This document shows, in pieces, positions 1 to 16,752 of a DNA stretch of 64,000 nucleotides. The translations under genes were made by a program, and so were the position numbers. The stretch's first letter is position 1. Every line of letters begins with the position of its first letter. Where the stretch lies: contig DAIQOK010000007.1 in NCBI GenBank assembly GCA_036787895.1, positions 42,883 to 106,882 of the forward strand, read 5' to 3'. The notes under the pieces are model-generated. The model saw nothing but the letters and a program-made list of their open reading frames with translations, did no database searches and was not told where the DNA came from. This DNA is from Bacteroidota bacterium (GTDB lineage Bacteria; Bacteroidota; Bacteroidia; UBA7662).

Positions 1-112
1 GAATCAACACTATGTAGACATATATTATCTTTTCATATTGTTAAATAAACTACATTTAAGACATCCAAACTAAAGATGTTCTAATTCCAAACCTACAGCA
101 GAACTCAATCGC

Positions 113-3100
113 ATGAAATCTATCGTTTTTATCGATACCGAAATTGAGCCTAAAAGCTTGCGGATACTGGATATAGGGGGCATTAAGAGCGATGGCAGTT
201 CTTTTCATAAAACTTCGCCTCTTGATTTTATTCAGTTTTTAAAAGGAGTAAAGTTTATTGCGGGGCACAACGTTTTAAATCACGATTACAAATATATTGG
301 CAACCTAATTACTGAGGCCGGCATTGCTCATGATGACCTCATAGATACATTATTCTTATCTCCTTTGCTTTTTCCTGCCAAGCCTTATCATACTTTATTA
401 AAAGACGACAAGCTGCAAACGGAAGAGATGAACAATCCTTTGAACGATGCCATAAAGGCAAAGGAATTGTTTGACGATGAGCTTGCTGCCTTTCAACAGC
501 TGGATGAAACGCTGAAACAGATTTTTTACAATTTGTTGTTTGACAAAAGGGAGTTTATCGCCTTTTTCCGTTTTTTGGAATACAAAGGGGGTTCACTTGA
601 TACCGAAACATTAATTCGACAAGTATTTAAAAAAGAGTTGTGTACACAGGCCAATCTTTCCCAAATAATTAGCGAAAAACCTATTGAACTGGCCTATTGT
701 ATATCGCTGATTCATGCTTTGGTTAAAAACAAAAAAACACATTCTATCACGCCCCCATGGGTGCTGCATAACTTTCCGGATGTTGAAAATATAATGTATC
801 GTTTGCGCAACCAGCCATGTGTAAGTGGCTGTGAGTATTGCAACAATGCTTTGGATATACACAAAGGACTTACTAGATTTTTTGGATTTGATAAGTTTAG
901 AACATATGCCGGTGAGCCCCTCCAGGAAAAAGCAGCCAAGGCGGCCATTAACAACAAATCGATTTTGGCCATTTTCCCTACCGGTGGCGGTAAATCAATT
1001 ACTTTTCAGCTGCCAGCCTTAATGAATGGTGAGCAAGCAAGGGGATTAACGGTTGTAATTTCCCCCTTACAATCGTTGATGAAAGACCAGGTTGATAATC
1101 TGGAAAGAATTGGCATAACAGATGCTGTTACCATTAATGGTTTACTAGATCCTATAGAAAGAGCCAAATCGTTTGAAAGGGTAGCCGATGGTTCAGCCAC
1201 TATCTTGTATATCTCGCCCGAATCGCTGCGGTCAAAGACAATTGAACGTTTATTACTGGGCAGAAACATCGTCCGATTTGTGATAGATGAAGCACACTGT
1301 TTTTCTTCCTGGGGCCAGGATTTTAGGGTTGATTATTTGTACATAGGCGATTTCATTAAACAGCTCCAGGAAAAGAAAAATCTTTCGGAAGGCATACCCG
1401 TTTCCTGTTTTACCGCAACAGCAAAACAGAAAGTAATTGAAGATATACGAGAATATTTTAAAGATAAACTATCGCTAGATCTTGAATTATTTACCTCCCA
1501 AGCAACGCGAACCAATCTCCAATACAAAGTATTTCAAAAAGGCACTGAAGATGAAAAATATCAAGAAGCCAGAGCCTTGATAGAAGCCAAAAATTGTCCT
1601 ACAATTATTTATGTTTCCAGAACTCGAAAAGCTTATTTACTGGCTGAAAGATTGTGCATGGATGGTTTTATTGCCAAGCCCTATCACGGCAAAATGGACA
1701 AACAGGAAAAGTCAGAAAACCAGGATTCGTTTATTAACGGTGAAACCCAAATAATGGTAGCAACTTCTGCTTTTGGTATGGGGGTTGATAAAAAGGATGT
1801 TGGCATGGTGATTCATTATGAAATATCCGACTCACTCGAAAATTACATACAAGAAGCCGGGAGAGCTGGGAGAGATGAAAATATAGTTGCAGATTGTTTT
1901 GTACTCTACAACGAAGAAGATTTAAGCAAACATTTTATCCTATTAAATCAGACTAAACTCTCGATTAAAGAGATACAACAAGTTTGGAAAGCCATCAAAG
2001 ATATCACCAAATTTCGTTCGAGTGTTTCAAACTCCGCTCTCGAAATAGCTAGAAAAGCAGGCTGGGATGACAATGTGGTTGAAATAGAAACCCGGGTAAC
2101 CACGGCAATTGCAGCTCTGGAAGATGCCGGCTATTTAAAACGCGGGCAAAATATGCCTCGAATTTTTGCTAATAGTATTCTATCAAAAAATGCTCAAGAG
2201 GCCATTGATAAAATTTGTGCTTCTGAAAAATTTGAAGAAAAGCAAAAAGAAACCGCTATTCGAATCATTAAAAAGCTCTTTTCCAGTAAAAGTAGAACAC
2301 AATCGGCAGAAGATCCAGCCGAATCAAGGGTAGATTATATCAGCGATCATTTAGGTATTCTAAAAAAAGATGTAATAAACATCATCAACTTGCTTCGTGA
2401 AGAGAAGATTTTAGCCGATAATAAAGATTTAACTGCATTTATAAAAAAAGGGGAGAATAAAAATCGTTCACTCAACATAGTTGAGAATTATCGAAAAATA
2501 GAAAACTTCCTTCTAACGAAATTTAGTCAGGAGGAAAAAACATTTCACATCAAAGAACTGAATGAAGAAGCCGAAAGTCAAGGCTGTGATGAGGTATCGC
2601 CCAGTAAAATTAAAACACTCATCAATTTTTGGGCAATTAAAAATTGGATTAGGCGTCAAAACTTACAATATTCAAAGAACCATTTTTCCGCCGTCTCACT
2701 CTATAGTCCTGATAGTTTAAAAGAAAAATTAGAGAAACGACATGTGTTGAGTGAATTCATTATTAATTTACTTCATACAAGAAGTAGTGCAAATAGTGAA
2801 AGCAAAGAAGAGGAAGTTTTAGTTGAGTTTTCTGTACATGAATTAAAATCAGCTTATGAAAAACTACCTGATTTATTTAAACTAGCCATAGGCATAGAGG
2901 ATATTGAAGACGCCCTCTTTTACCTATCCAGGATAGAAGCACTTAAAATTGAAGGTGGGTTTTTAGTGGTCTACAACAGTTTAACCATCGAACGCATTGA
3001 ACAAGACACTAAACGGCGTTATAAAGTTGAAGATTACCAAAAGCTCAATCAGTTTTATGAAAACAAAGTGCAGCAAATTCATATTGTTGGTGAGTATGCC

Positions 3101-4918
3101 AAAAAAATGATCAACGACTACAGAGAGGCATTACAATTTGTAGAAGATTATTTTCAACTCAATTATCAGTCATTTCTAAATAAATACTTCAAGGGCAGTC
3201 GTCAGAATGAAATCAAAAGAAATTTAACCCCTGAGAAATTCAAACAACTCTTTGGAGAACTGTCTCCAACCCAATTAAAAATTATAAACGACAACGAAAG
3301 TAAACACATAGCGGTTGCTGCCGGCCCCGGTAGCGGAAAAACACGGGTTTTGGTTCATAAATTGGCATCGTTGTTACTGATGGAAGATGTAAAACATGAG
3401 CAATTGCTTATGCTTACATTTTCACGGGCTGCTACTACAGAGTTTAAAAAGCGATTATTAAAACTTATTGGAAATGCAGCGAATTTCATCGAAATAAAAA
3501 CCTTTCACTCTTATTGTTTCGATTTATTAGGTAAGGTTGGTAGCCTTGAAAAGTCAGATGTAGTTTTGAAAAAGACCATTGACAAAATCAAACGAAAAGA
3601 AGTTGAGTCAAGTAGGATTACCAAAACCGTTTTGGTAATTGACGAAGCCCAGGACATGAACGAGGATGAATACAACCTAATAGCTACGTTGATGGAGGAA
3701 AACGAGGAAATGCGCGTAATAGCCGTAGGAGACGACGATCAGAATATTTACGAATTCAGAGGTGCCAGTTCCAAATATCTAGAACGTTTTATAAAAGAAA
3801 ACAATGCAAGTAAGCATGAAATTTTAGAAAATTACAGAAGTAAAAGTAATTTGGTAACACTTACAAATCACTTCGCAGCCACTATTCAACACCGTTTAAA
3901 AAGCACGCCCATCGTTGCCAAACAAACAGATTATGGAAAGTTAAAATTAGTTCGTTATCAAAGTGGAAAACTAATAAGTCCGCTGGTAGAGGGTGTATGT
4001 AGTGCTGAATTAAGGGGGACTAGCTGTGTGCTTACCAAAACCAATGAAGAAGCACAGCAAATAACCGGTCTGTTGTTAAAGAATAAACTTCAAGCAAAAT
4101 TGATTCAATCGAATGAAGGTTTTAGTTTATACAACCTTTTAGAGGTTCGTTTCTTTTTAGATCAACTTAAATTGTCAGATGATGTATTCGTTATTTCTGA
4201 TGAGGTTTGGGATAATGCCATTAGAGCATTAAAAAGCAAGTTTCAACGCAGCACGAAATTTGAAATATGTTTGAATATCATAAAGGATTTTAAAGAAGTC
4301 AACCCCAAAAGGAAATACAAATCTGATTTAGAAGTATTCATACGTGAATCCAAGATGGAAGACTTCTACAATGAGCACGGAGAAACTATTTTCGTATCTA
4401 CCATTCACAAAGCAAAAGGCAAAGAGTTTGACAACGTTTTCCTGATGCTTGACAACATCACAGCAAATAGCGATGAGGCCAAAAGACAATTGTATGTAGC
4501 CTTGACCAGGGCCAAACAACAATTGGTTATACATACTAATTCAACAGTTTTTGATACTATTTCGGCCGAACAGTTGGAAAGAATAGTTGACTTTGATCAA
4601 TACGAACAGCCCAAAGAGCTGGTCATGCATTTAAACTTAAAAGATGTGTGGCTTGACTATTTTATTGACAAACAAAATGCAATAGCAGAACTCATAGCCG
4701 GAGATATGTTGGTTATAAAGAACGATGAATGTTTGAATTCAAAAGGGGATTCTATTTTAAGGTTTTCAAGACATTTTTTGGCACAAATTGACGAATTACA
4801 AGAGAAAGGCTATCAATTGAAGTCAGGCAAGGTAAACTTCATCGTGTACTGGTTAAAGGAAGGCACTACGAATGAGGTAAGAGTTGTTTTGCCAGAGCTT
4901 TATTTTGAGAAAGTTTAG
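113..4918 (+). CDS. Large multidomain DNA-processing protein: N-terminal DnaQ/epsilon-like 3'-5' exonuclease, RecQ-family SF2 helicase core, uncharacterised ~350-aa middle region, C-terminal UvrD/PcrA-like SF1 helicase core
   Basis: The protein starts with a DEDD-type exonuclease signature (FIDTEIE ... HNVLNHDYKYI). RecQ motifs follow: motif I FPTGGGKSITFQLPAL, motif II FVIDEAHCFSSWGQDFRVDY (DEAH), motif III FTATA, motifs V-VI MVATSAFGMGVDKKDVGMVIHYEISDSLENYIQEAGRAGRD. UvrD motifs lie in the C-terminal third: motif I AAGPGSGKTRVL, motif Ia LTFSRAATTEF, motif II VIDEAQDMNEDEY, motif III GDDDQNIYEFRGA, motif IV NYRS, motif V STIHKAKGKEFDNVF, motif VI LYVALTRAK. It is a single uninterrupted 1601-aa ORF with ATG at 113. 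Confidence 0.8.
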   Translation: MKSIVFIDTEIEPKSLRILDIGGIKSDGSSFHKTSPLDFIQFLKGVKFIAGHNVLNHDYKYIGNLITEAGIAHDDLIDTLFLSPLLFPAKPYHTLLKDDKLQTEEMNNPLNDAIKAKELFDDELAAFQQLDETLKQIFYNLLFDKREFIAFFRFLEYKGGSLDTETLIRQVFKKELCTQANLSQIISEKPIELAYCISLIHALVKNKKTHSITPPWVLHNFPDVENIMYRLRNQPCVSGCEYCNNALDIHKGLTRFFGFDKFRTYAGEPLQEKAAKAAINNKSILAIFPTGGGKSITFQLPALMNGEQARGLTVVISPLQSLMKDQVDNLERIGITDAVTINGLLDPIERAKSFERVADGSATILYISPESLRSKTIERLLLGRNIVRFVIDEAHCFSSWGQDFRVDYLYIGDFIKQLQEKKNLSEGIPVSCFTATAKQKVIEDIREYFKDKLSLDLELFTSQATRTNLQYKVFQKGTEDEKYQEARALIEAKNCPTIIYVSRTRKAYLLAERLCMDGFIAKPYHGKMDKQEKSENQDSFINGETQIMVATSAFGMGVDKKDVGMVIHYEISDSLENYIQEAGRAGRDENIVADCFVLYNEEDLSKHFILLNQTKLSIKEIQQVWKAIKDITKFRSSVSNSALEIARKAGWDDNVVEIETRVTTAIAALEDAGYLKRGQNMPRIFANSILSKNAQEAIDKICASEKFEEKQKETAIRIIKKLFSSKSRTQSAEDPAESRVDYISDHLGILKKDVINIINLLREEKILADNKDLTAFIKKGENKNRSLNIVENYRKIENFLLTKFSQEEKTFHIKELNEEAESQGCDEVSPSKIKTLINFWAIKNWIRRQNLQYSKNHFSAVSLYSPDSLKEKLEKRHVLSEFIINLLHTRSSANSESKEEEVLVEFSVHELKSAYEKLPDLFKLAIGIEDIEDALFYLSRIEALKIEGGFLVVYNSLTIERIEQDTKRRYKVEDYQKLNQFYENKVQQIHIVGEYAKKMINDYREALQFVEDYFQLNYQSFLNKYFKGSRQNEIKRNLTPEKFKQLFGELSPTQLKIINDNESKHIAVAAGPGSGKTRVLVHKLASLLLMEDVKHEQLLMLTFSRAATTEFKKRLLKLIGNAANFIEIKTFHSYCFDLLGKVGSLEKSDVVLKKTIDKIKRKEVESSRITKTVLVIDEAQDMNEDEYNLIATLMEENEEMRVIAVGDDDQNIYEFRGASSKYLERFIKENNASKHEILENYRSKSNLVTLTNHFAATIQHRLKSTPIVAKQTDYGKLKLVRYQSGKLISPLVEGVCSAELRGTSCVLTKTNEEAQQITGLLLKNKLQAKLIQSNEGFSLYNLLEVRFFLDQLKLSDDVFVISDEVWDNAIRALKSKFQRSTKFEICLNIIKDFKEVNPKRKYKSDLEVFIRESKMEDFYNEHGETIFVSTIHKAKGKEFDNVFLMLDNITANSDEAKRQLYVALTRAKQQLVIHTNSTVFDTISAEQLERIVDFDQYEQPKELVMHLNLKDVWLDYFIDKQNAIAELIAGDMLVIKNDECLNSKGDSILRFSRHFLAQIDELQEKGYQLKSGKVNFIVYWLKEGTTNEVRVVLPELYFEKV

Positions 4919-5329
4919 GCTAACTGAGATAAAATCACAATTAGTTGACAATCCATCTCTCTGTGCTGCCGCAAAAAGCCGAATCGGGATAATACTACTG
5001 TCGTTCCGGCAACAGCAACAAACGCCCCGCCAAAGGTGCCTGGGCATAAGGCCCGTGGCTTTCGTGCATATCGGGACACATCAGCACCCAGCATTGGACT
5101 TCATAAACCGTAACAGGCCCCTCCTGTTGAACATTATTGTATTCTACGAAAAAAATGTATCTAATACCGGTTTATAAAACAGTCGAGTATTCGGAAAATA
5201 TATCACTAAAATTTCTGCCGGATATGTTTACACATCACGCAACCAACAACACATGGATCGGGAGAAAAATACTGTAGCAAATTGAGGCGGTATAAACCTA
5301 AATTTTGACATTACAACATAATAACAATT

Positions 5330-5447
5330 CACAGAAATTGTTGTATTTTTTCCATGAATTTTACAAAATTTAGCCATTAGCAGGAATTATTTAGTTTGAC
5401 TTTCTATATTTCTGAATTAGTAATTTAAGCTAATCGAAAAATAGCTC
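5330..5447 (+). promoter_or_regulatory. Candidate promoter region in the AT-rich 530-bp spacer upstream of the NUDIX/PLD-helicase operon
   Basis: This is a long AT-rich intergenic region. It contains TAGTTTG (~5390), which matches the Bacteroidota -7 TAnnTTTG consensus, a few tens of bp upstream of the NUDIX ATG at 5448. The call is positional only. Confidence 0.25.
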
Positions 5448-5870
5448 ATGACAGATAAACAAAAATCTCGAGAGAACAAATTGACAAAGTCAGTAAAGGT
5501 TTGTTGTGCTATAATTCTTAATGAGAAAAAAACACTTGTAGTTCAACGTAGTGAAAAGATGTCGTTACCTCTGAAATGGGAGTTTCCAGGTGGTAAAATA
5601 GAATTTGGAGAAACGGAAGAAGAATGTGTCCTTAGAGAGATAAAAGAGGAATTGAATATTGAAATTATCCTTATATCTAGATTAACCCCAACAACATTTT
5701 TTTATCCCAATATTGTGGTACATTTAGTTCCATTTTTGGCCGTATTTTCAAGGGGTGAGATGAAATTATCCGAACATATAAATTACAAATGGTTACAAAA
5801 GGATAAACTTGCTGAATTGGATTGGGCAGAAGCAGATATTCCAATATTAAAAGAATATATCAATATATGA
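5448..5870 (+). CDS. NUDIX hydrolase (MutT-like)
   Basis: The Nudix box GGKIEFGETEEECVLREIKEELNI fits the GX5EX7REUXEEXGU consensus. The protein is 140 aa. Its stop codon TGA overlaps the start codon of the next gene (ATGA at 5867-5870). Confidence 0.85.
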   Translation: MTDKQKSRENKLTKSVKVCCAIILNEKKTLVVQRSEKMSLPLKWEFPGGKIEFGETEEECVLREIKEELNIEIILISRLTPTTFFYPNIVVHLVPFLAVFSRGEMKLSEHINYKWLQKDKLAELDWAEADIPILKEYINI

Positions 5871-8800
5871 TAGAGGGTATTTACGAAGAGCTGGTAACGC
5901 AACTTGTAAGGCAAAATATAGGTGCTTTAGACCAGAGTTCATTCTATATTGAGAAGAGCGTTTTAGACAAAGAAGAGGCTGCAACAATTCTTGCCAAGCA
6001 TCTTGGTCAAACCATAAAACATGCCTTGAGCTATATTAAAGGCGAAAAATCTATAGAACTACAAATAGAGATTGCTAATAAAATTATATTATTTCTGAAA
6101 GAGGAACTGAAAAGAGAAGAATTTGATCAAGATCTTATAGCCATAGAGGGTGAAATATTGAAGGCTGTCTTTTCAAAAATTGATGCGCAATTTTCAGACA
6201 TAAACCTTCATTTAAAAGAAATTACCCCTTATACGCGACTAACACATAGTGAGCTCTTTACTGGTGGAAATGTGGGTTTGTCGCTAGAAAGCGAACTAAA
6301 AAAAGAGATTCTCTCAGCAAATGAAATTGATTTGCTCGTTTCCTTTATCAAGTTTAAAGGTATCATTATACTCGAAAGGGAATTGCGTGAGTTTGCAAAA
6401 CGTGGCGGAAAATTGCGCGTAATTACCACCACGTATATGGGCGCATCAGACTACAAGGCTATCCAGCTCTTGTCCAAATTACAGAATGCAGAAATAAGGA
6501 TATCCTACAATAATGGCAATGAACGCCTGCATGCCAAGGCTTATCTTTTCAAAAGGTCTACAGGTTTTCATACGGGATATATTGGTTCTTCCAATTTTTC
6601 GCGTTCAGCCCTTACTGATGGTTTAGAATGGAACCTGAAAATCACAACCAAAGAGGTAAGTCACATTATTGATAAGTTTCAGAAGACGTTTGATTCATAT
6701 TGGGTGAGTGATGATTTCGAAAAGTTTGATGATAGTATTCATAAGGAGAAATTGATTAGCTCACTGAATCAAGGAAGAATTGGAAAATCTACCTCATTAA
6801 ATACTAATTTTTTTGATGTTAAACCCTTTCCATTTCAGGAGGAAATACTTGAAAAGCTTGATGTTGAGCGTACAAAGCACCATAGAAATAGAAATCTAGT
6901 TGTAGCCGCAACCGGCACTGGTAAAACCGTTATTTCTGCATTTGATTTCAACAGATTCAAGAAAGATAACAGCTCTGCTAAGCTTCTTTTTTTAGCGCAT
7001 AGAAGGGAAATCCTAGAACAATCCATGAGTGCTTTTCGAGGCATTCTAAAAGATAACAATTTTGGCGAGTTATGGGTGGGAGGGATTGAACCTACGAGTT
7101 ATGAACATATTTTTGCATCCATTCAAATATTAAATAATCGTTTAAACGATTTAAATCTTTCTCCACAATATTTTGACTATATAGTAATTGATGAGTGTCA
7201 CCATTTAACTGCAAACTCTTATCGAGGAATCATTAATTATTTCAAGCCTAAAGTTTTAATTGGATTAACTGCCACGCCTGAACGAATGGATGGTGGAGAT
7301 ATTCAAGAAGATTTTCATCACCGAATTGCCGCTGAAATTCGATTGCCAGAAGCCCTAAACAGAAAGTTGTTATGCCCGTTTCAATATTTCGGAATTACAG
7401 ATAGTATAGATCTTTCTCGTATAGGGTGGGAACGCGGGCGATATATAGCCAGTGAATTGTCATCTATTTACACAGCAAACGATAAAAGGATTCGTGAAAT
7501 TATTGACGCATTAGAAAAGTATACCAGAGAACCTAGTGATGTTCGTGCACTTGGGTTTTGCGTAACTATGGAGCACGCCAAGTTTATGGCTGAGAAGTTT
7601 GCGCTTGCTGGACTCAAAGCAGATTATCTAACAAGCGACAACACCCAACACCGAGATAGTGTTAAAGAAATGTTGCTCAGGAAAGAAATTAATTACCTTT
7701 TTGTGGTTGATATTTTTAATGAAGGTGTTGATATTCCGGAAATTGATACCGTTTTGTTTTTAAGGCCAACAGAAAGTCTAACAATATTCTTACAGCAACT
7801 AGGTCGGGGGTTGCGTTTGGCAGAAAATAAAGAGGTCCTAACTGTTTTAGATTTCGTAGGAAATTCTAGACCTGAGTACAATTTTGAAAACAAATTCAGG
7901 GCACTCATTGGCAAAACCGCAACCACTGTAAAAAAAGAAATTGAAGACAATTTTCCGCATTTACCATTAGGCTGCTCTGTAATTTTGGAGAAAAAGGCAA
8001 AGCAGATTATTCTTGAGAATATCACGGCAGCCACTTCGCTCAACAGAAAACAACTAATTCTAAAGATTCAAAGCTTTCAACATCAAACATTACTCGATTT
8101 AAACTTGAAGAATTTTATAGAATTTTATAATATCCCACTTCAATTGATCTATAAGCGCGGGAGCTGGAAAAGACTTTGCCATGAGGCTGGTAGGATTAAA
8201 GATTTTGAAAGTACTAACGAAAAACAAATTGTAAATGCCATTTCAAATAAATGGCTTTCGTGTAACTCATTAAGCTATTTTGAGTTTGTTCGAACTTTAG
8301 CAGAAAATCAATTTAATATATCTGGAATTAAGTTCAATAAAGCTGAGAAGCAAATGCTTTTGATGCTACATTATGATGTTTGGCAAAGTGCAGGCGGCTT
8401 TTCTTCTTTAAAAAATAGTATTGAAGAATTGGGGAAAAACCAGATATTAATTGATGAAATAATAGAAGTCTTGAATATTTTAATTGACAGAGTTGACTTC
8501 AAAGAAATAGACATTGACCTACCCTACCAACAGCCCTTAAAAGTTCATGCGCGTTACACTAGAGATCAAATATTAGCGGCTTTTGGCCTTAGTACCTTTG
8601 AAAAAAAATCTTCAAACCGTGAAGGTGCTGCTGTAAATTTAGCACTGAATACAGAGCTTTTATTTATCAATTTAATTAAGTCAGAAGAAAACTTCTCTCC
8701 TACCACCATGTATGATGACTATGCGATTAATGAAAACCTGTTTCATTGGCAAAGTCAAAATTCAGCAGGCCCAGAAACTCCTAAAGGTTTGTCCTACTTA

Positions 8801-9007
8801 GACCATGAACGGAATCAAAAGAAAATATTACTTTTTATTCGCGAGAAGAATAAAGATGAATTTGGCAATACTCAGGGCTATGTGTTTGTAGGCGAAGCAA
8901 ATTTGCGAGATCATTATGGTGCAAAACCAATGAACATAAAATGGGAGTTGAATGAGCCTTTGCCCCATTTTTTGTGGCATGATGCAGCAAAACTGAGGGT
9001 GGGTTAG
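5867..9007 (+). CDS. PLD-family (HKD) nuclease domain + SF2 ResIII/DEAH-type helicase + C-terminal DUF3427-like domain protein
   Basis: An HKD-type motif RLHAKAYLF ... GSSNFS lies in the N-terminal third. Helicase motif I is VVAATGTGKTVISAF, motif II is IVIDECHHLT, motif III is GLTATPER, and motif VI is QQLGRGLR. The C-terminal ~250 aa (HARYTRDQILAAFG ... GYVFVGEANL) resembles DUF3427, which commonly follows this helicase type. I place the start at ATG 5867, overlapping the NUDIX stop. The ORF track begins at 5822 with a non-ATG start. Confidence 0.8.
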   Translation: MIEGIYEELVTQLVRQNIGALDQSSFYIEKSVLDKEEAATILAKHLGQTIKHALSYIKGEKSIELQIEIANKIILFLKEELKREEFDQDLIAIEGEILKAVFSKIDAQFSDINLHLKEITPYTRLTHSELFTGGNVGLSLESELKKEILSANEIDLLVSFIKFKGIIILERELREFAKRGGKLRVITTTYMGASDYKAIQLLSKLQNAEIRISYNNGNERLHAKAYLFKRSTGFHTGYIGSSNFSRSALTDGLEWNLKITTKEVSHIIDKFQKTFDSYWVSDDFEKFDDSIHKEKLISSLNQGRIGKSTSLNTNFFDVKPFPFQEEILEKLDVERTKHHRNRNLVVAATGTGKTVISAFDFNRFKKDNSSAKLLFLAHRREILEQSMSAFRGILKDNNFGELWVGGIEPTSYEHIFASIQILNNRLNDLNLSPQYFDYIVIDECHHLTANSYRGIINYFKPKVLIGLTATPERMDGGDIQEDFHHRIAAEIRLPEALNRKLLCPFQYFGITDSIDLSRIGWERGRYIASELSSIYTANDKRIREIIDALEKYTREPSDVRALGFCVTMEHAKFMAEKFALAGLKADYLTSDNTQHRDSVKEMLLRKEINYLFVVDIFNEGVDIPEIDTVLFLRPTESLTIFLQQLGRGLRLAENKEVLTVLDFVGNSRPEYNFENKFRALIGKTATTVKKEIEDNFPHLPLGCSVILEKKAKQIILENITAATSLNRKQLILKIQSFQHQTLLDLNLKNFIEFYNIPLQLIYKRGSWKRLCHEAGRIKDFESTNEKQIVNAISNKWLSCNSLSYFEFVRTLAENQFNISGIKFNKAEKQMLLMLHYDVWQSAGGFSSLKNSIEELGKNQILIDEIIEVLNILIDRVDFKEIDIDLPYQQPLKVHARYTRDQILAAFGLSTFEKKSSNREGAAVNLALNTELLFINLIKSEENFSPTTMYDDYAINENLFHWQSQNSAGPETPKGLSYLDHERNQKKILLFIREKNKDEFGNTQGYVFVGEANLRDHYGAKPMNIKWELNEPLPHFLWHDAAKLRVG

Positions 9008-9152
9008 GTGAAAAGGGGATAATATTCTTGTGATCAGGTTTAATACAAGTCTTTTTATACACCAGAAGCAGTTACAGAAATCACAAAGAAGTAAAGTAGT
9101 TCGAGTAGACCCAGCCTCTACAAAAGGAAGCCACCTAAAAAAGGAGTTATCG

Positions 9153-9201
9153 CCCTGCCTTTGGGCCTTTTCGTATTCACCGGCTGCCGTTGGGGCATAC
9201 A
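9153..9201. repeat. Direct repeat copy A (~47 bp) duplicating the 5' end of the downstream TlpA-like lipoprotein gene; candidate att site
   Basis: cctgcctttgggccttttcgtattcaccggctgccgttggggcataca (copy A) against cctgcttttgggccttttcgtattcatcggctgccgttggggcataca at ~10470-10518, with 2 mismatches in 47 bp. Flanking bases are also partly similar (cctaaaaaagga / cctaaaaaggaa). Confidence 0.8.
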
Positions 9202-9292
9202 AAGTGTAGGCAATACAGCAGACAATTTCTATTGAATCTGAAAGAAGCACACATAGCACCAAGCAATAAAACCTTTGTCATACCCAAGGTAA

Positions 9293-9393
9293 ATGTCGAT
9301 TTTTTCCTGTTTCATCGACATATCCGAATAATAGGTTTATGCCATCGACATAAGCCACAGATATGTTTAAAACTGGGCAATATTTCGACATAT
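9293..9393. repeat. Cluster of four TCGACATA-type 8-bp motifs (one inverted, three direct); candidate protein-binding (arm-type/operator) sites
   Basis: atgtcgat at 9293-9300 (inverted); tcgacata at 9315-9322, 9345-9352 and 9385-9392. Spacing between copies is ~30-40 bp. The region is non-coding and lies immediately inside repeat copy A. Confidence 0.6.
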
Positions 9394-9484
9394 CTCGAAA
9401 ATAGCTTTACAACAGCGATAGGTTAACCAACTAAAAAACACACATGGGACCAGCAACCGTTTGGTTTTATAATCTCGTGTAGGG

Positions 9485-10084
9485 TCAATCTTCTCCCTTC
9501 AAAGTAATCAAATCAAAATACATCAATCTCGTGGACAAAGGTATGCTGGGTTCATGTCCAGTGTGTTCTGCTTCCTGTTTTTCGGTACTGAATATAAACT
9601 CGAAGCTATTGTCTTGATAATACTTTAGGGGTGCAGCTTGGTTATAGGCATCTACAACGATGAAGCGACATCCGGTTTTATTTTGTTCATCTACAAACCA
9701 AGATTTAATAAAATCCATCAGTTCTTTGCCGATTCCTCTTTTTTTAAAGTCTTCTGCAACACCCAAGCGACCAATTAATACTGCAGGATAACTTCTTATG
9801 TGTTTCTCTCTTGGAACATCCTTGATAACCTTCTTTTTCCGGCTGCCTGGCATTCCATTTACTTTTATGCTGTCGTTGGATATTGTGAATGCACAAACCA
9901 TTTGACATGGAGATTCATCGGTAGTGAATACATAAGTTTTGCCAAGCAATTCTCTGGCATAAGCCAATGCCTCGTTTTCAAAAAAGTCGTTTAAGTCTGC
10001 ATTTCCACAGTCGAGTGGTTTGCAGGATTTGAAAAGATCTGCCGTGAGCAGTTGCAATTGGCAATGTTCGAGCAGATAACCCAA
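9485..10084 (-). CDS. GNAT-family N-acetyltransferase, toxin-like (candidate type II TA toxin)
   Basis: The 199-aa protein has an acetyl-CoA-binding GNAT core (VLIGRLGVAEDFKKRGIGKELM). It is preceded 11 bp upstream by a small ORF. Its position in the island and its size class are consistent with GNAT toxins, but the toxin assignment is inferential. Confidence 0.55.
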   Translation of the reverse strand: MGYLLEHCQLQLLTADLFKSCKPLDCGNADLNDFFENEALAYARELLGKTYVFTTDESPCQMVCAFTISNDSIKVNGMPGSRKKKVIKDVPREKHIRSYPAVLIGRLGVAEDFKKRGIGKELMDFIKSWFVDEQNKTGCRFIVVDAYNQAAPLKYYQDNSFEFIFSTEKQEAEHTGHEPSIPLSTRLMYFDLITLKGED

Positions 10085-10095
10085 CGGCTGAATGT

Positions 10096-10254
10096 TTAAA
10101 TATTAGCCTTTTTAAGAATTGCTTTTGCTGTTTTTTGTTGCGCGCTGAAGTTAACAGTAGCTTTTTTTGCCAAGCCTGCTTTGGCTTTTTTCTGAAAAGA
10201 CGCAGCTACCCGTCCGGTGAGTACAGGAATAGATTTAATAGTAGTTGCCATCAT
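10096..10254 (-). CDS. Unannotated small ORF (~52 aa, MMATTIKSIPVLTGRVAASFQKKAKAGLAKKATVNFSAQQKTAKAILKKANI), candidate antitoxin/partner of the GNAT gene
   Basis: I translated this by hand from the minus strand: ATG (revcomp) at 10252-10254 and TAA stop at 10096-10098. It is lysine-rich and lies immediately upstream of and co-oriented with the GNAT gene. It is below the 60-aa cutoff of the supplied ORF track. Confidence 0.4.
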   Translation of the reverse strand: MMATTIKSIPVLTGRVAASFQKKAKAGLAKKATVNFSAQQKTAKAILKKANI

Positions 10255-10450
10255 CGTTTCGTTTTAGTGTCTACAAAATAAACATAAAGGACTGATATAC
10301 CAAAACATAAGACAGTTAACCTATCTCAGGTCTATTCATCATTTCATCGCTTGAGTGAACCTCAAAGCCTTCCAAATCGTTCTGCACGGTATACCATTTG
10401 GCTCAGCTTCAATCGTATCTTTATCCCCATCCCCTAAAAAGGAAAACCAC

Positions 10451-11701
10451 ATGAAAAAATTAACACTCGGCCTGCTTTTGGGCCTTTTCGTATTCATCGG
10501 CTGCCGTTGGGGCATACATCTCGAAGGGCAGTACCGCCTCCAATTTGGCCAATGGCGCGGAGCGCTGCTTACCGATGGGGGCGAGTTGCCCTTTATTTTT
10601 GAGATGAGTCGTTTGCCCGATTCGTCTTTCAGCTTTGTGCTGCACGATGGCGATCAACTGGTGGAGTCGAGCGAGTTTGAGATTGTGGGCGATTCGTTTA
10701 TTGTGCGTTTTCCGGTCTTTGAGAGTACTTTAATCGGTGCCATCTCTACCATGGGCGATACGCTGCGGGGGGAGTTGATACGAGTGAAATACGATGTAGA
10801 AAGCCGCTTGCCTTTTGTGGCGGTAGCAGGGGGTAAATATAAGTTCGCTGCCATTAGTGGCCGACTGCCGGCCGAGCTAGATGGCAAATGGCAGACGACC
10901 ATGTACAAAAACAATGGCGACAGCACCGAAGCCATCGGCCTGTTTAGCCAGACCGGCAGCGACATTAGCGGTTCTTTTGCCACCAATTTTGGCGATTACC
11001 GCTTTTTGAGCGGCATAGTCGATGGCGATTCGTTGTTTATGTCGGGTTTCGACGGTTCGGGAGCTTATTTGTTCAAGGCGCGTTACGACAAAGTCACCGC
11101 TACCCTCAGCGGCGATATGTATGCCGGGCAGTCGAAAATCCGGACTTGGAAAGCGGTGCGTAATGCCGACTACCAACTCGCCGATCCGAACGCGCTCACC
11201 TACCTCAAAAATCCGAAAGCCGGCATCAGCTTCAGCTTCCCGAATACCGAAGGCAAAATGATCAGCACCTCCGACCCGGCCTACCAGGACAAAGTGGTGG
11301 TACTGCAAATTTTAGGCAGCTGGTGCCCGAATTGTCTGGATGAAACACCTTTTTTGGCCGAATTCCACAACAAATACCAAAGTCAAGGACTCGAAGTTAT
11401 CGGCCTCGGATTTGAACGTACCGCCATTAAAGAGAAGGCCTTCAACAATCTGCAGCGCCTGAAAACCCGCTACAAAGCCAATTACGAAATAGTTTTGGCC
11501 GGCACCCCCGATTCAACCGGTGTAGCCAACGCCTTGCCGAATCTGGCGAAAATAGCCGCTTTCCCGACCACCATTTTTATCGATAAAAAAGGTGTGGTTC
11601 GACGCATACATACCGGCTTTAATGGTCCCGCCACCGGCGAACCTTATACCGAATACCAGGCCGAGTTTACGCATTACATCGAAAGTCTGCTCGCCGAATG
11701 A
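10451..11701 (+). CDS. TlpA-like thiol:disulfide oxidoreductase (thioredoxin-fold) lipoprotein
   Basis: A lipoprotein-type signal peptide, MKKLTLGLLLGLFVFIGC, starts at ATG 10451. The C-terminal redoxin domain carries a WCPNC active site (VVLQILGSWCPNCLDETPFLAEF). The stop overlaps the mfd start (ATGA). Confidence 0.8.
   Translation: MKKLTLGLLLGLFVFIGCRWGIHLEGQYRLQFGQWRGALLTDGGELPFIFEMSRLPDSSFSFVLHDGDQLVESSEFEIVGDSFIVRFPVFESTLIGAISTMGDTLRGELIRVKYDVESRLPFVAVAGGKYKFAAISGRLPAELDGKWQTTMYKNNGDSTEAIGLFSQTGSDISGSFATNFGDYRFLSGIVDGDSLFMSGFDGSGAYLFKARYDKVTATLSGDMYAGQSKIRTWKAVRNADYQLADPNALTYLKNPKAGISFSFPNTEGKMISTSDPAYQDKVVVLQILGSWCPNCLDETPFLAEFHNKYQSQGLEVIGLGFERTAIKEKAFNNLQRLKTRYKANYEIVLAGTPDSTGVANALPNLAKIAAFPTTIFIDKKGVVRRIHTGFNGPATGEPYTEYQAEFTHYIESLLAE
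10470..10518. repeat. Direct repeat copy B (within the signal-peptide codons of the tlpA-like gene); partner of copy A
   Basis: See copy A: 45 of 47 bases are identical. Confidence 0.8.
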
Positions 11702-14700
11702 GCGACAGCCTCGTCGCCCTTGTAGGTGAGCGCCCCCGGGAGGAGAGCACCAAAAGTGCCCTCGGCCAGCTGCTCGCTTTATACGGACTGCATCCCAAAC
11801 ACCAGGAGCTCTGCGCTGCCCTGAATCAGAACCAGGCGCGGATCGTACTCAAGGGCACCCCCGGTTCCTTGCCGGCGGTATTGGCAGCAGCTACCTGGCA
11901 ACAGCGGCCAGCCACCTATTTGTTGGTGCTCAACGATCGCGAAGAGGCGGCCTATTTTCACAACGACCTGGCCAGTCTGCTGCCCGAGCGGGAAATTCTG
12001 TTTTTCCCGGCCAGCTACAAAAAACATTTCGACCCGGAACAACTGCAGAGCAGCCATGTGCTCCAACGCGCCGAGGTGCTCAACCAGGTAAACCACAACA
12101 AACGCCAGGGCGAGCTCATCGTCACCTATCCCGAAGCGCTGGCCGAGAAGGTCGTCAACAAATTCACCATCACCAAAAACACCATCGACATCCGGCTGAA
12201 GGAGAAACTCAATCTCGACTTCATCACCGAAATGCTCGTCGAATACGGTTTTGAGCGGGAAGATTTTGTGTACGAACCCGGTCAGTTCAGCATACGCGGA
12301 GGCATAGTAGATGTATTCAGCTTCGCCAACGAGTTGCCCTACCGCATCGAGCTCTTCGGCGACGAGGTCGACAGCATACGCACCTTCGACCCCGAATCGC
12401 AGCTCAGCGTCAAAACCATCGGTCAGCTGAGCCTCATCCCCAACATCCAAACCCATCTCCTCAAAGAAAGTCGGGAGTCGTTGCTCAACTTCCTACCCGC
12501 CAACACCACAGTCTGGATACGCGACATCGTGCTCACGGCCGACGTCATAGATCAGTGTTACGAAAAAGCCGAGGAAAACTGGAACCAGGCCCACGATTTA
12601 TCGGAACTCACCCCATCGGAGGCTTTCGAAGACGGCAACTCCTGGCAGGCTTTGTTGCTGGAGAAGCAAGTCGTGGAATTCGGCACAGATCAGTTGGCCG
12701 GCAAAAAAACCATCATCGACTGGGCCTCGCAACCCCAGATTGCCATCCGCAAAAACTTCGACCTGCTCATCAGCAGCATGCAGGAGAACGAAAAAAAGGG
12801 CATAAAAAACCTCTTGTTCAGTGATGCCAAAGCACAAATCGAGCGATTGTACCACATTTTCGAAGATTTGAAAGCCGGCGTGGCTTTTTACCCTTTGTAT
12901 ACCAGTCTGCACGAAGGATTTATAGACCAGCAGCTGCACATCAGTGTATTTACTGACCACCAGATTTTTGAGCGTTACCACAAATACAAGCTCAGCAGTT
13001 ATAAGTCGAAAGGTGCCGGCATCACGCTCAAAGACCTGAAAGAACTCCGCCCAGGCGACCATGTGGTGCATATCGACCACGGCGTTGGGGTATTCGACGG
13101 CCTGCAGAAGATAGATGTGAACGGCCAGCAACAGGAGGCCGTGCGTTTGATTTACCGCGATGGCGATTTGTTGTATGTCGGCATCAACTCCCTCCACAAA
13201 ATTGCCAAATACAGCGGCAAAGAAGGCGTACCTCCGCGGGTCAACAAACTCGGCAGCGATGTGTGGGAGAAGCTGAAGAGCAAAACGAAGTCGAAGGTTA
13301 AGGACATCGCCAAAGACCTCATCGAGCTTTACGCCAAACGCAAAGGCACCGCCGGCTTCGCCTTTTCACCCGACAGTTATCTTCAGAACGAACTCGAGGC
13401 CAGCTTCATTTACGAAGACACCCCCGACCAATACAAGGCCACCGAAGCCGCCAAGGCTGATATGCAAAAACCATATCCCATGGACCGTTTGGTCTGCGGT
13501 GATGTAGGTTTTGGCAAGACGGAAGTCGCCATACGCGCTGCCTTTAAAGCCGCCACCGATGGCAAACAGGTCGCTGTACTCGTGCCCACCACCATACTTG
13601 CCCTCCAACATTTCAAAACTTTCAGCACCCGATTGCGCGATTTTCCGGTCACAGTAGATTATGTCAACCGTTTCCGTTCTGCCAAAGATGAAAAGGCTGT
13701 TCTAGAAAAAGTAACGAGCGGTAAAGTAGACATACTGATCGGTACGCATAAGTTGGTAGGCAAAAATGTGAAGTTTAAAGACCTAGGCTTGCTCATCATC
13801 GATGAAGAACAAAAGTTTGGCGTAGGTGTAAAAGAAAAGCTCCGGCAAATGCGGGTGAATGTAGATACGCTCACGCTTACTGCTACACCGATACCACGCA
13901 CTTTGCAGTTTTCGCTCATGGGTGCCCGCGATTTGAGCGTCATCACCACACCGCCACCCAACCGTCAGCCGGTACAGACGGAATTGGTACACTTCGACGA
14001 GGACAAAATCCGGGAAGCCATTTTGTATGAAGTTGACCGCGGTGGCCAGGTCTTTTTCGTGCACAACCGGGTCACCAACATCAAAGACGTGGCGCAGCTC
14101 GTGCAGCGGCTTTGTCCGAAAGTGAGCATTTGTGTAGGCCATGGCCAAATGCCCGGCGATGAGCTCGAAGATGTGCTTTTAGACTTCATCGACGGCAAAT
14201 ACGATGTATTGGTGGCCACCAACATCATCGAATCGGGCCTCGACATCCCGAATGCCAATACCATCATCATTAATATGGCTCAGAATTTTGGGCTCAGCGA
14301 TTTGCACCAGATGCGCGGCCGGGTGGGTCGGAGTAATACCAAGGCTTTCTGTTATCTCGTCACGCCACCCACGGCAACGCTCACCACCGAGGCCCGCAAA
14401 CGTCTCAAAGCACTCGAAGAATACAGCGATTTAGGCAGCGGTTTCCAGATTGCCATGCGCGATTTGGACATACGTGGTGCTGGTAATATGCTGGGTGCCG
14501 AACAAAGTGGTTTCATCACCGAAATCGGCTTCGATATGTATCAAAAGATACTCGACGAGGCCTTGCGCGAGCTGAAAGACACTGAATATGCCGGCTTGTT
14601 CGAAGATGCCGGTCCACGTGAATTTGTGCGCGATGTACAGTTAGATACCGATTTGAACGCCTTGTTGCCCGAGCGTTATGTGCGTAATACCACCGAACGT

Positions 14701-15072
14701 CTGGCCCTCTATATGCAGCTCGACAATACCGAAACCGAGGATGGCCTCGAACGTTTCCGCGCCGAATTGCTCGACCGTTTTGGTCCCTTGCCGCAGGAAG
14801 CAGAAACTTTGCTTACGTTAATCCGTTTGCGTTGGGCCGCGAAAGGCCTGGGCATGGAAAAAGTGGTATTGAAAGGCGGCAAGATGAAGTGTTATTTCGT
14901 CAGTGGCAAAAACGAAGCCTTTTACCAAAGCGACATATTTGGTCGTATACTCGACCATGTGCGGATAAACGCTGCACGGGTAAGCCTAAAACAAACTACG
15001 GCCACTGTGGTGCTCGAATTCCAGGGCGTAAAGGGAGCAGAGGCTGCTTTAACTGCTTTGAACGAAATCTAA
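11698..15072 (+). CDS. mfd: Transcription-repair coupling factor Mfd
   Basis: The protein is 1124 aa. SF2 translocase motifs are present: LVCGDVGFGKTEVAIRAA, LIIDEEQKFGV, TLTATPIPRT, QMRGRVGRS. The overall architecture matches Mfd/TRCF. Confidence 0.95.
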   Translation: MSDSLVALVGERPREESTKSALGQLLALYGLHPKHQELCAALNQNQARIVLKGTPGSLPAVLAAATWQQRPATYLLVLNDREEAAYFHNDLASLLPEREILFFPASYKKHFDPEQLQSSHVLQRAEVLNQVNHNKRQGELIVTYPEALAEKVVNKFTITKNTIDIRLKEKLNLDFITEMLVEYGFEREDFVYEPGQFSIRGGIVDVFSFANELPYRIELFGDEVDSIRTFDPESQLSVKTIGQLSLIPNIQTHLLKESRESLLNFLPANTTVWIRDIVLTADVIDQCYEKAEENWNQAHDLSELTPSEAFEDGNSWQALLLEKQVVEFGTDQLAGKKTIIDWASQPQIAIRKNFDLLISSMQENEKKGIKNLLFSDAKAQIERLYHIFEDLKAGVAFYPLYTSLHEGFIDQQLHISVFTDHQIFERYHKYKLSSYKSKGAGITLKDLKELRPGDHVVHIDHGVGVFDGLQKIDVNGQQQEAVRLIYRDGDLLYVGINSLHKIAKYSGKEGVPPRVNKLGSDVWEKLKSKTKSKVKDIAKDLIELYAKRKGTAGFAFSPDSYLQNELEASFIYEDTPDQYKATEAAKADMQKPYPMDRLVCGDVGFGKTEVAIRAAFKAATDGKQVAVLVPTTILALQHFKTFSTRLRDFPVTVDYVNRFRSAKDEKAVLEKVTSGKVDILIGTHKLVGKNVKFKDLGLLIIDEEQKFGVGVKEKLRQMRVNVDTLTLTATPIPRTLQFSLMGARDLSVITTPPPNRQPVQTELVHFDEDKIREAILYEVDRGGQVFFVHNRVTNIKDVAQLVQRLCPKVSICVGHGQMPGDELEDVLLDFIDGKYDVLVATNIIESGLDIPNANTIIINMAQNFGLSDLHQMRGRVGRSNTKAFCYLVTPPTATLTTEARKRLKALEEYSDLGSGFQIAMRDLDIRGAGNMLGAEQSGFITEIGFDMYQKILDEALRELKDTEYAGLFEDAGPREFVRDVQLDTDLNALLPERYVRNTTERLALYMQLDNTETEDGLERFRAELLDRFGPLPQEAETLLTLIRLRWAAKGLGMEKVVLKGGKMKCYFVSGKNEAFYQSDIFGRILDHVRINAARVSLKQTTATVVLEFQGVKGAEAALTALNEI

Positions 15073-15917
15073 ACCGGATAAACCAATACCGGAATTTCGG
15101 CCCGGTACACGAGATCGTCGACTACATTGGAGCCAAAAACGGCATCGAAAAAGCTGCGGTTCTGGTGGATAAGGATGACGAGATGCGGGTAGATTTCGGC
15201 AATGGCTTTATCGAGCCCCTCTTCCACATCGTTATTGCGCAACTCCATAAAATGCAGGTTTTTGTACTCCACAGCCTTGCGGGTAAGCGTTTCGAAGCCA
15301 ATAAAGCGTAATTTTTCATCAAAACTTGGTTTGGTTCTGATGTGTAATACATGTATTGAGCTTTTGAATTCTTTGGCCAGGGTGGTGGCTTTTTGGAGCA
15401 CATTGAGGTCGTTTTCCTTGAAGTCGGTGGCAAACAACATACGATCGAGCTTCACCTCCGGCAATTTGGAGGTTGTGGCCAATACAGGGCAGGAAGTAAG
15501 GTCGATAACGCCAGAAGTGGTGGTATCAAACACAAAACGACGTAAGCCGGTAGTGATCCGATTACCCATACAAATGAGATCGGCTTGAACTTCTGCGGCG
15601 GTTTGAATGATGGTGGTCACCGCTGCGCCTGTCCGCAATAAACTCACGACCCTGGATTTGCTGCCGGCTAAATTGAGCTTAGCACGTTCCAGGGCTTGTT
15701 TCAACGCAGGTTTGGAGACTTTTTCATGCTCCTTCCTGATTTTATCTTGCTGGATATTGGTGCCGTGAGCTAATTCAATCACGTGCAGCAAGATGATACG
15801 TGCTTTGGTTTTGGAAGCGATTAAGGTGGCGTAGTCGATGGCTCGATTGGCTTTGTCGCTGAAATCGGTGGGGACCAATATGATTTGTACCGTTGATTTT
15901 TCTTTTTTCTCGGCCAT
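15069..15917 (-). CDS. Universal stress protein (tandem UspA domains)
   Basis: Two Usp-like halves are visible: ILVPTDFSDKANRAIDYA ... and LFATDFKEN ... The protein is 282 aa. It is convergent with mfd and overlaps it by 4 bp. Confidence 0.75.
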   Translation of the reverse strand: MAEKKEKSTVQIILVPTDFSDKANRAIDYATLIASKTKARIILLHVIELAHGTNIQQDKIRKEHEKVSKPALKQALERAKLNLAGSKSRVVSLLRTGAAVTTIIQTAAEVQADLICMGNRITTGLRRFVFDTTTSGVIDLTSCPVLATTSKLPEVKLDRMLFATDFKENDLNVLQKATTLAKEFKSSIHVLHIRTKPSFDEKLRFIGFETLTRKAVEYKNLHFMELRNNDVEEGLDKAIAEIYPHLVILIHQNRSFFDAVFGSNVVDDLVYRAEIPVLVYPV

Positions 15918-15918
15918 C

Positions 15919-16752
15919 TTAGTGGGTTATAAATGCTTGAAGGGTGCCGCTTTTAAGCAGGTGATCAGCAGTGCTGCCCGAGAAAAAGCGCGCAATGCCA
16001 CTTTTGCCATAGGCACCCATTACCACCAGCGGGTCTCCTTTCTGACTGGCAAAATACGGGATTTCTTCCTTGGGTTTTCCAACCAGATCAACCCAGTTCA
16101 AGTTCGGGAAACGCAGTTGAAGTATTTCCACTAAACCTTCTTCGGCTGCTGTAATGGTCTCGGCCTGATCAAATACCCGTATAAGGTAGTGGTCCCAGTC
16201 GGCGCAGGCTGGTTTGAAGGTGTGAAAATACTCGTCGATAGCGCGCATGCTGCTGTCGGAGCCATCGTAACAGAGGGCGACCGATTCAAACAATCGGGCA
16301 TTTTCGGGGAGAAGCAGTATAGGGCAGCGTGACCGACTGAGCAATTGTTTTACCACTTGCTGGTCGCTGTCGCTGGCAAACGTATTGTACGACCGGTAGC
16401 CCATAAGCAGCAAATCGGCAAAGAGGGTTTCTTTGACTACCTCTTCCACGGGGTCACCTTTGTCGAAGTGGACTTTAAAGCGCACATTGGCCTTTTTACA
16501 TTCCTCCACAAAATAATTGATGAGCTCAACTGTCTTTTTTTCGCTTTCGCTCAGGCTGTCTTTAATGATTTGGAAGGTATGTTCGTAATACACGGGTTCA
16601 CCACCGAGTACGGTATAATAATCCACGAGTGTAAGGTCTTGCACAAATACACCGGTGAGTACGGCATCGTTTTTTTTGGCGAGGGCAAAAGCCTGATCCA
16701 GCACATTTCCGGCATTAATTCCCTGGTCGACGACCAATAATAATTTGTCCAT
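15919..16752 (-). CDS. Universal stress protein family (tandem Usp domains)
   Basis: MDKLLLVVDQGINAGNVLDQAFALAKKNDAVLTGVFV ... The likely start is the ATG at 16752, with a longer ORF running to 16785. It lies adjacent to the other usp gene. Confidence 0.7.
   Translation of the reverse strand: MDKLLLVVDQGINAGNVLDQAFALAKKNDAVLTGVFVQDLTLVDYYTVLGGEPVYYEHTFQIIKDSLSESEKKTVELINYFVEECKKANVRFKVHFDKGDPVEEVVKETLFADLLLMGYRSYNTFASDSDQQVVKQLLSRSRCPILLLPENARLFESVALCYDGSDSSMRAIDEYFHTFKPACADWDHYLIRVFDQAETITAAEEGLVEILQLRFPNLNWVDLVGKPKEEIPYFASQKGDPLVVMGAYGKSGIARFFSGSTADHLLKSGTLQAFITH

Follow-up and report, generated by a model that had tools for sequence, protein, structure and literature searches.

Locus and gene arrangement

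The locus analysed here lies in a 64 000-nucleotide stretch of contig DAIQOK010000007.1 of a Bacteroidota bacterium (assembly GCA_036787895.1), hereafter the window, and holds a candidate toxin–antitoxin (TA) pair. Both open reading frames (ORFs) are on the minus strand of the window and are arranged, from 5′ to 3′, as a small ORF, a spacer of 11 nucleotides (nt) and a gene for a GNAT acetyltransferase (table 1). An earlier reading of the locus made from the bare letters (the sequence-only reading) had described a lysine-rich ORF of 52 amino acids (aa) on the same strand, 11 nt upstream of a 199-aa GNAT; the coordinates agree, and 10 of the 52 residues are Lys. The length holds for the ORF from its first ATG, but alignment with homologues places the likely start at the second ATG, giving a protein of 51 aa. 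The ORF had also been called unannotated, which is correct for the track of ORFs of at least 60 aa that was used for that reading but not otherwise, as public gene calls contain exactly the 51-aa protein together with the 199-aa GNAT.

Table 1. Features of the locus and of the low-GC island that holds it, in window coordinates.
Feature	Position	Strand	Description	Basis
Putative promoter and short leader of the operon	10255..10300	-		sequence
−7-like element (putative)	10280-10274	-	TATTTTG; contains TTTG, imperfect match; ~22 nt upstream of ATG 10251	sequence
Small partner gene (putative antitoxin)	10254..10096	-	52 aa from first ATG (ATG ATG GCA...)	
Likely start of small gene	10251	-	second ATG; 51 aa, 'MA...', MATTIKSIPVLTGRVAASFQKKAKAGLAKKATVNFSAQQKTAKAILKKANI	alignment with homologues
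Core motif of small protein	10251..10192	-	codons 1-20; M-A-x-x-I-K-x-I-P-x-L-x-G-x-x-A-x-x-F	alignment of diverse partners
Intercistronic spacer	10095..10085	-	11 nt	sequence
GNAT ORF	10084..9485	-	199 aa, TTG start	
Inserted two-gene cassette	9471..10425	n/a	~0.95 kb	comparison with strain locus L119, without cassette
Double helicase	113..4918		DEAD+UvrD, DpdF/GajB-like, 1601 aa; low-GC island	
Type IV restriction enzyme	5822..9007		PLD-ResIII (helicase)-DUF3427; low-GC island	

Conservation of the small gene

Dozens of chance ORFs of 30-60 aa occur within the same AT-rich 5 kb, so that 52 codons alone are not significant, and the reality of the small ORF was therefore judged by comparison with related loci. 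Homologues were sought in one genome per species, which gave 287 confirmed GNAT loci, and 80 of these were retrieved for analysis. In 79 of the 80 genomic loci a 51-54-aa homologue of the small ORF ended −1 to 28 nt before the GNAT (modes 2 and 12 in 69 non-redundant loci), and the small ORF likewise preceded the GNAT in all 29 viral loci that include upstream sequence, even at 37-47% GNAT identity. Nucleotide diversity of the small ORF was 0.35, 0.35 and 0.58 at codon positions 1, 2 and 3, respectively, and 65% of the single-nucleotide codon differences were synonymous. Judged by this diversity pattern and synonymous excess, the small ORF is a real translated gene under purifying selection. 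Conservation in homologous loci, on which the sequence-only reading had made its proposal depend, was thus found. The ribosome-binding site that it had named alongside does not apply as a test, and the missing Shine–Dalgarno sequence carries no weight, because Bacteroidota generally do not rely on such sequences. The TTG start of the GNAT is backed by a conserved N-terminus (x-G-F-L) that begins at a legal start codon in 69 of 69 non-redundant loci.

The sole exception among the 80 genomic loci (L046, Parapedobacter sp., about 2880-3580) retains only the C-terminal 27 codons of the small ORF. Its GNAT no longer begins with ATG, although a TTG could serve as start, and shows P152A and N159G at otherwise invariant positions; this pair may be a decaying copy.

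The GNAT protein

Domain searches of the GNAT gave a weak Pfam match to Acetyltransf_1 (1.5e-5), with matches to Acetyltransf_7 and _10 as well, and a PHROGs assignment to phrog_1758, acetyltransferase (3.9e-30). Among sequences of solved structures in the PDB, the only significant matches were to the tRNA-acetylating toxins AtaT, TacT3, KacT, AtaT2 and GmvT. The 11 best matches (E 6e-5 to 5e-3) were all toxins, AtaT being the best at 5.9e-5, and the alignment spanned GNAT residues 8-157, from the 'DCG..LN.F' N-terminal motif to the catalytic Tyr. The GNAT was also modelled with AlphaFold2 at moderate confidence (predicted local distance difference test, pLDDT, 73.5; basic loop <50). When this model was compared with the PDB in Foldseek, tRNA-acetylating toxins filled ranks 1-37 (E 6e-9 to 2e-6), other GNATs such as Naa60 and NAT10 coming only from rank 38 onward. 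In a tblastn search of plasmids the GNAT matched proteins of Ralstonia and Cupriavidus (~30% identity, E 2e-9), namely GNATs whose annotated neighbours are DUF1778 antitoxins. The protein belongs to the toxin branch of GNATs and lies nearer to validated toxins than to any other GNAT.

Functional residues were mapped using the AtaT alignment, published AtaT mutational data (PMC7595197) and an alignment of 20 family members. The catalytic Y144 of AtaT corresponds to Y156, which is invariant in 20 of 20 members and is the equivalent of TacT Y140 and KacT Y145. The acetyl-CoA motif is R116-G-I-G-K, which fits (Q/R)-x-x-G-x-(G/A), and within it G119, the counterpart of the acetyl-CoA-binding G108 of AtaT, is invariant. 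Equivalents of R95 and F30, both proposed to recognise tRNA (R106 and F34 here), and of L27 of the aminoacyl pocket (L31 here) are invariant or nearly so, and the lysine-rich helix α3 of AtaT (K77-K82) corresponds to a conserved basic loop, R82 K83 K84 K85. In AtaT, mutation of the mapped residues abolishes toxicity, R95A having an effect similar to that of Y144F (PMC7595197).

The sequence-only reading had regarded the GNAT as longer than usual and possibly a diverged variant, and both points stand: it has 199 aa compared with ~172-175 aa in the PDB constructs, and its identity to characterised toxins is 14-19%. The extra length consists of 4 residues at the N-terminus, 7 in the basic loop and ~15 before the last strand. 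Four cysteines (C8, C26, C64 and C139) are invariant in the GNAT family, of which C26, in the 'DCG' motif, alone is common to AtaT.

The small protein family

The consensus of the small protein in the 79 loci is MAIAIKSIP(T/V)LK.K.A..F...A......K..(V)DFSKQ...A..ILKKAKL. Clustering of the family gives at least 1185 clusters at 90% identity and 705 representatives at 50%. Nearly all members are 51-53 aa long, and every one bears the name 'hypothetical' and lacks a Pfam domain. Pfam searches with 34 members at E<=10 gave nothing relevant and no PF08681 (DUF1778), NCBIfam and PADLOC searches gave no match, and a profile search of PDB sequences with the family was likewise without a match. Comparison by hhalign with a DUF1778 alignment (AtaR/KacA/TacA3) returned a probability of 0.1%, and as a control AtaR used as query retrieved PF08681 proteins, as expected. 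In PHROGs the protein fell weakly into phrog_16712, a family of unknown function. An AlphaFold2 model (pLDDT 84) has residues 1-12 extended, followed by helices at 13-30 and 35-48, and the fold search with it gave no ribbon-helix-helix (RHH) match and no other fold match. The family and profile searches also revealed no recognisable DNA-binding domain. The small protein is thus a new family and not a member of DUF1778, and the assignment of the pair by the sequence-only reading to the GNAT/RHH loci, with a TacA/AtaR-like antitoxin, is not supported. A reading of the small protein as a leader peptide or as a ribosomally synthesised and post-translationally modified peptide was also considered, and was rejected on the ground that no modifying enzyme or transporter is conserved in the neighbourhood.

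In an alignment of 14 diverse partners the only invariant positions were A2, P9, L11, G13, A16 and F19, and for this reason the N-terminal ~20 residues appear to be the functional core of the small protein. In diverged phage partners the C-terminal half is unrelated, as in MATPIKDTPVLTGKDARRFEKMIKENESKRVSPENYERIM... We infer that codons 1-20 encode the part touching the GNAT. In Bacteroides phage BS-TP1 (L086, PQ571274.1, 1978-2481) the gene annotated upstream of the GNAT (gp120) is gp121, of 167 aa, which is probably over-extended; the partner is apparently a 68-aa ORF inside gp121, beginning MARPIKNTPVLYGKDAERFL...

Distribution and mobility

A plasmid of Segatella copri DSM 18205 carries the 51-aa gene 9 nt ahead of the GNAT, and in RefSeq the gene is entered as hypothetical. 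A relative of the GNAT is also found on a Parabacteroides distasonis plasmid, Bacteroides phage BS-TP1 carries a copy adjoining its integrase, and IMG/VR holds relatives on 30 viral contigs. No flanking protein family recurred in more than 4 of 81 loci. The 121 nearest neighbour proteins matched 155 different Pfam families, of which the commonest was the type IV secretion system coupling protein (4 loci); Fic, RhuM, pAgo, DndH, dGTPase and restriction enzymes were among the families scattered between loci. The pair is an autonomous, horizontally mobile two-gene cassette, kept together whatever the neighbourhood, and its carriers in Bacteroidota include plasmids, phages, conjugative elements and defence islands.

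Four loci with the pair (L011, L062, L076 and L077) come from bins assigned to Acutalibacteraceae, Lachnospiraceae, Oscillibacter or Bacilli. They are nearly the same in sequence as Prevotella/Segatella versions, so that wrong binning of contigs seems likelier than a true occurrence in Firmicutes.

Strain comparisons and the surrounding island

Two loci from related strains were compared with the window. In L119 the flanks match window 9220-9454 and 10435-16000 at 81-86% identity and the pair is absent, window ~9471-10425 being replaced at this empty site by ~55 unrelated nt. In L118, with flanks ~91% identical, the small gene is intact and the GNAT is frameshifted upstream of Y156: a 2-nt deletion after WFVDEQ removes the catalytic Tyr, and P79L is found at an otherwise invariant proline. 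This pattern of decay fits the loss of a harmful downstream gene with its antidote kept.

The pair lies at the edge of a low-GC island, with a GC content of 33-40% in window 1-10300 vs 50-56% in 10600-16000. Right of this step is core genome (a redoxin lipoprotein gene, mfd and two Usp genes). At one chromosomal site, flanked by the big helicase and the redoxin gene, the defence cargo differs among three related strains: the type IV restriction enzyme in the window (4919-9211), a Schlafen-like helicase (PADLOC PDC-S41, 5e-277) with DarT nearby in L118 (7656-9828), and HipBA, an HNH nuclease, two Dcm-type cytosine methyltransferases and a NOV_C protein in L119 (1303-8268). The site is a defence-island hot spot.

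Several repeats were found around the pair. A 42-nt direct repeat with one difference (9160-9201 and 10477-10518; 0 expected by chance) brackets it. The redoxin gene has its signal peptide and lipobox encoded in the right copy; the left copy lies at the end of the restriction-enzyme cassette and is absent from L118, which has a different gene there. The repeat was therefore rejected as an att site or integration scar of the pair, since by the L118 comparison its left copy belongs to the restriction-enzyme cassette; it looks like a scar left by cassette exchange, the donor having had the restriction gene directly next to the redoxin gene. A metagenome scan for the 38-nt core of the repeat gave no match. 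An 11-nt inverted repeat flanking the pair was at chance level by estimate. Downstream of the GNAT stop, window 9313-9409 contains three direct repeats of ~27 nt, namely CATCGACATATCCGAATAATAGGTTTA and two 74% copies, with starts 30 and 40 nt apart. They fall in the stretch 9220-9454, kept at 81% in L119, and because that locus lacks the pair they are part of the host's intergenic DNA, outside the cassette. Elsewhere in the window the minus strand of 19957-28344 holds a very large ORF of 2795 aa.

Expression signals

The Bacteroidota −7 motif TAnnTTTG was present between −70 and −15 of the small-ORF ATG in 52 of 68 non-redundant loci, with a peak at −35 to −25, and the TATTTTG element in the window is putatively part of a promoter. 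The upstream regions of the non-redundant loci contained no recurrent palindrome or k-mer besides this motif, and scans around the locus for sigma-70 promoters, terminators, tRNA and Rfam families returned nothing relevant. The GNAT starts with TTG at 35, GTG at 12 and ATG at 22 of 69 loci. The assigned start of the small ORF is ATG in every locus, only ATG starts having been searched for. From this asymmetry of start codons, GNAT synthesis would stay below that of the partner.

Interpretation and alternatives

The pair is probably a mobile TA-like module of type II, in which a GNAT of the TacT/AtaT type would be neutralised by a new, very small protein by way of its N-terminus. Most likely it unites a known type of toxin with a new partner family, and perhaps with a new mode of neutralisation. 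Features general to type II TA loci were found, including a co-oriented gene pair, a short spacer, unconserved neighbours and a patchy, mobile distribution. The sequence-only reading had proposed a TA-like pair with a TacT/AtaT-like GNAT, and PDB and fold matches, catalytic residues, near-universal pairing and mobility support this at the level of sequence. We infer toxicity, a tRNA target, neutralisation by direct binding and a biological role as follows. The GNAT would use acetyl-CoA to acetylate the α-amino group of charged tRNA, leading to translation arrest, with Y156 as the catalytic acid, G117 and G119 binding acetyl-CoA, and R106 and the R82-K85 loop binding the tRNA acceptor end. The 51-aa protein would be made in excess of the GNAT, because its start is always ATG and that of the GNAT is TTG or GTG in two thirds of loci, and would bind and neutralise the GNAT by means of its conserved first 20 residues. 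If the presumably labile small protein were lost, be it with its plasmid, phage or island or under stress or infection, the toxin would be set free, and the module might serve in the stabilisation of mobile DNA and/or in abortive infection.

A number of points weigh against this interpretation. Identity of the GNAT to characterised toxins is only 14-19%, and confidence in its model is only moderate. The equivalents of H34, R37 and R40 in helix α1 of AtaT are not conserved, nor is that of R71, and A26 of the AtaT aminoacyl pocket is replaced by an invariant Asp (D30) in the family; with D30 in this place and the basic helix-α1 residues not kept, the substrate could differ from that of AtaT. Classical autoregulation is unsupported, because the small protein has no DNA-binding domain and there is no conserved operator palindrome upstream. 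L118 offers one instance of the frameshift, in an assembly of short reads, and an artefact could explain it. It has, moreover, been noted that where TA-like bicistrons fall outside the DUF1778 'true TA clade', their acetyltransferases may have taken on other functions (PMC9177977).

The main rival reading is that the GNAT is a non-toxic accessory acetyltransferase, modifying for example a small molecule, a phage or plasmid protein or the small protein itself, with the 51-aa protein as substrate, adaptor or regulator. The distance of the family from validated toxins and its probable place outside the 'true TA clade' (PMC9177977) argue for such a role, as do the lysine-rich composition of a partner without DNA-binding signature and the invariant Asp, which hints at another acceptor substrate; Makarova et al. 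2009 first took GNAT-RHH operons as possible resistance modules. However, the nearest solved relatives are all tRNA-acetylating toxins, with Naa60 and NAT10 trailing from Foldseek rank 38, the mapped AtaT toxicity residues are invariant or nearly so, and no transporter, biosynthetic or resistance gene is conserved nearby. The patchy, mobile distribution on plasmids and phages also fits a TA system, as do the weak GNAT start codons and, in L118, the survival of an intact partner next to a pseudogenised GNAT. We regard an accessory enzyme as conceivable but rather unlikely. It is very improbable that the locus is a canonical GNAT/DUF1778 system (TacAT/AtaRT) with a shortened RHH antitoxin: gene order and spacing match, and in the model an extended N-terminus precedes two helices, the strand-helix-helix order that an RHH monomer would show, but the profile and fold comparisons of the small protein gave no such match. 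The view of the small ORF as accidental or as a leader without function, with the GNAT a solitary gene, can be practically dismissed. Many chance ORFs of this size occur in the AT-rich stretch and no database family was matched, but the idea is refuted by a small ORF that keeps its length, place and sequence across 79 of 80 genomic and all 29 viral loci, and the third-position excess, the synonymous share, the protein clusters (at least 1185) and the RefSeq annotation on the S. copri plasmid all speak against it.

Within the TA interpretation a more specific and distinctly speculative proposal, which we doubt, is that the small protein is a pseudo-substrate inhibitor of the GNAT toxin, representing a new class with no DNA-binding or autoregulatory function. 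After removal of Met, the invariant Ala2 N-terminus and the conserved A-x-x-I-K-x-I-P-x-L-x-G segment would thread into the aminoacyl/acceptor channel and mimic the α-amine of charged tRNA. Its polarity would be opposite to that of DUF1778 antitoxins, which use the C-terminus, and the N-terminal 'plug', fused to unrelated C-terminal halves in phages, might then act as an interchangeable module, in the role of antitoxin or of anti-defence peptide.

Acetylation of charged tRNA by GNAT toxins is well known as a cause of growth arrest and as a way to persistence and plasmid maintenance; these toxins have so far been studied almost entirely in Proteobacteria with DUF1778 antitoxins. The toxin mechanism itself would be expected here and is not surprising. 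The present family is large (>3,000 GNAT clusters and >1,100 partner clusters) and extends through Bacteroidota and their plasmids and phages, with host genera including human-gut Segatella, Bacteroides, Phocaeicola and Parabacteroides; it is common among gut Bacteroidales. If the TA interpretation is true, it would provide a new antitoxin family, possibly a new neutralisation mode, and a name for thousands of small proteins now called 'hypothetical'. It would also answer whether bicistrons outside the DUF1778 clade (PMC9177977) are real TA systems, and would present a candidate module for stabilisation or abortive infection in the mobile elements and defence islands of Bacteroidota.

Comparison with known systems

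The closest known systems are the type II TA loci of GNAT/DUF1778 composition (AtaRT, TacAT, KacAT, ItaRT and GmvAT), which have the same order of an antitoxin-like gene followed by the GNAT after a short spacer and, like the present pair, are found on plasmids and mobile islands. Their toxins gave the best sequence and fold matches and share with the GNAT described here the 'F-D-C-G...L-N-x-F' N-terminal region, a basic loop before the 'P-x-V-L-I-G-R-L' strand, the acetyl-CoA glycines and the catalytic Tyr. In contrast, the present GNAT is ~25 residues longer and has three family-specific invariant cysteines (C8, C64 and C139). The partners differ more: DUF1778 antitoxins have ~90 aa and neutralise through the C-terminus, whereas the partner here has 51 aa with no detectable DUF1778/RHH homology, is conserved at the N-terminus with a variable C-terminal half, and lacks the ~40-aa C-terminal toxin-binding extension. 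The range differs as well, being Bacteroidota for the present pair and mainly Proteobacteria for the GNAT/DUF1778 systems.

Literature searches for this Bacteroidota GNAT/small-protein family found no characterisation of it. A GNAT said to resemble AtaT/TacT/ItaT, near a lysine-rich small ORF, was described in the Bacteroides fragilis cfiA element (PMC9138018). Compared by description only, that case differs: the partner proposed for the GNAT there is another acetyltransferase ('XAT'), and the lysine-rich peptide is encoded ahead of cfiA. A precedent for a GNAT toxin with its DUF1778 partner swapped for an unrelated antitoxin family is VcaAT, a combination of DUF4065 antitoxin and clade C GNAT toxin for which toxicity and rescue were both demonstrated (Bikmetov et al. 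2022, PMC9177977); the partner here, unlike that of VcaAT, has no Pfam match. The same study reported acetyltransferases sharing the ancestry of GNAT toxins and preceded by short divergent ORFs 'lacking any predictable DNA-binding domains', without settling what these ORFs do (PMC9177977). The GNAT family described here probably lies outside the 'true TA clade' of that work, and the pair fits these outside-clade bicistrons by description. Beyond that work, one such family is now shown to be large and strictly paired, with a defined N-terminal motif and a mobile distribution.

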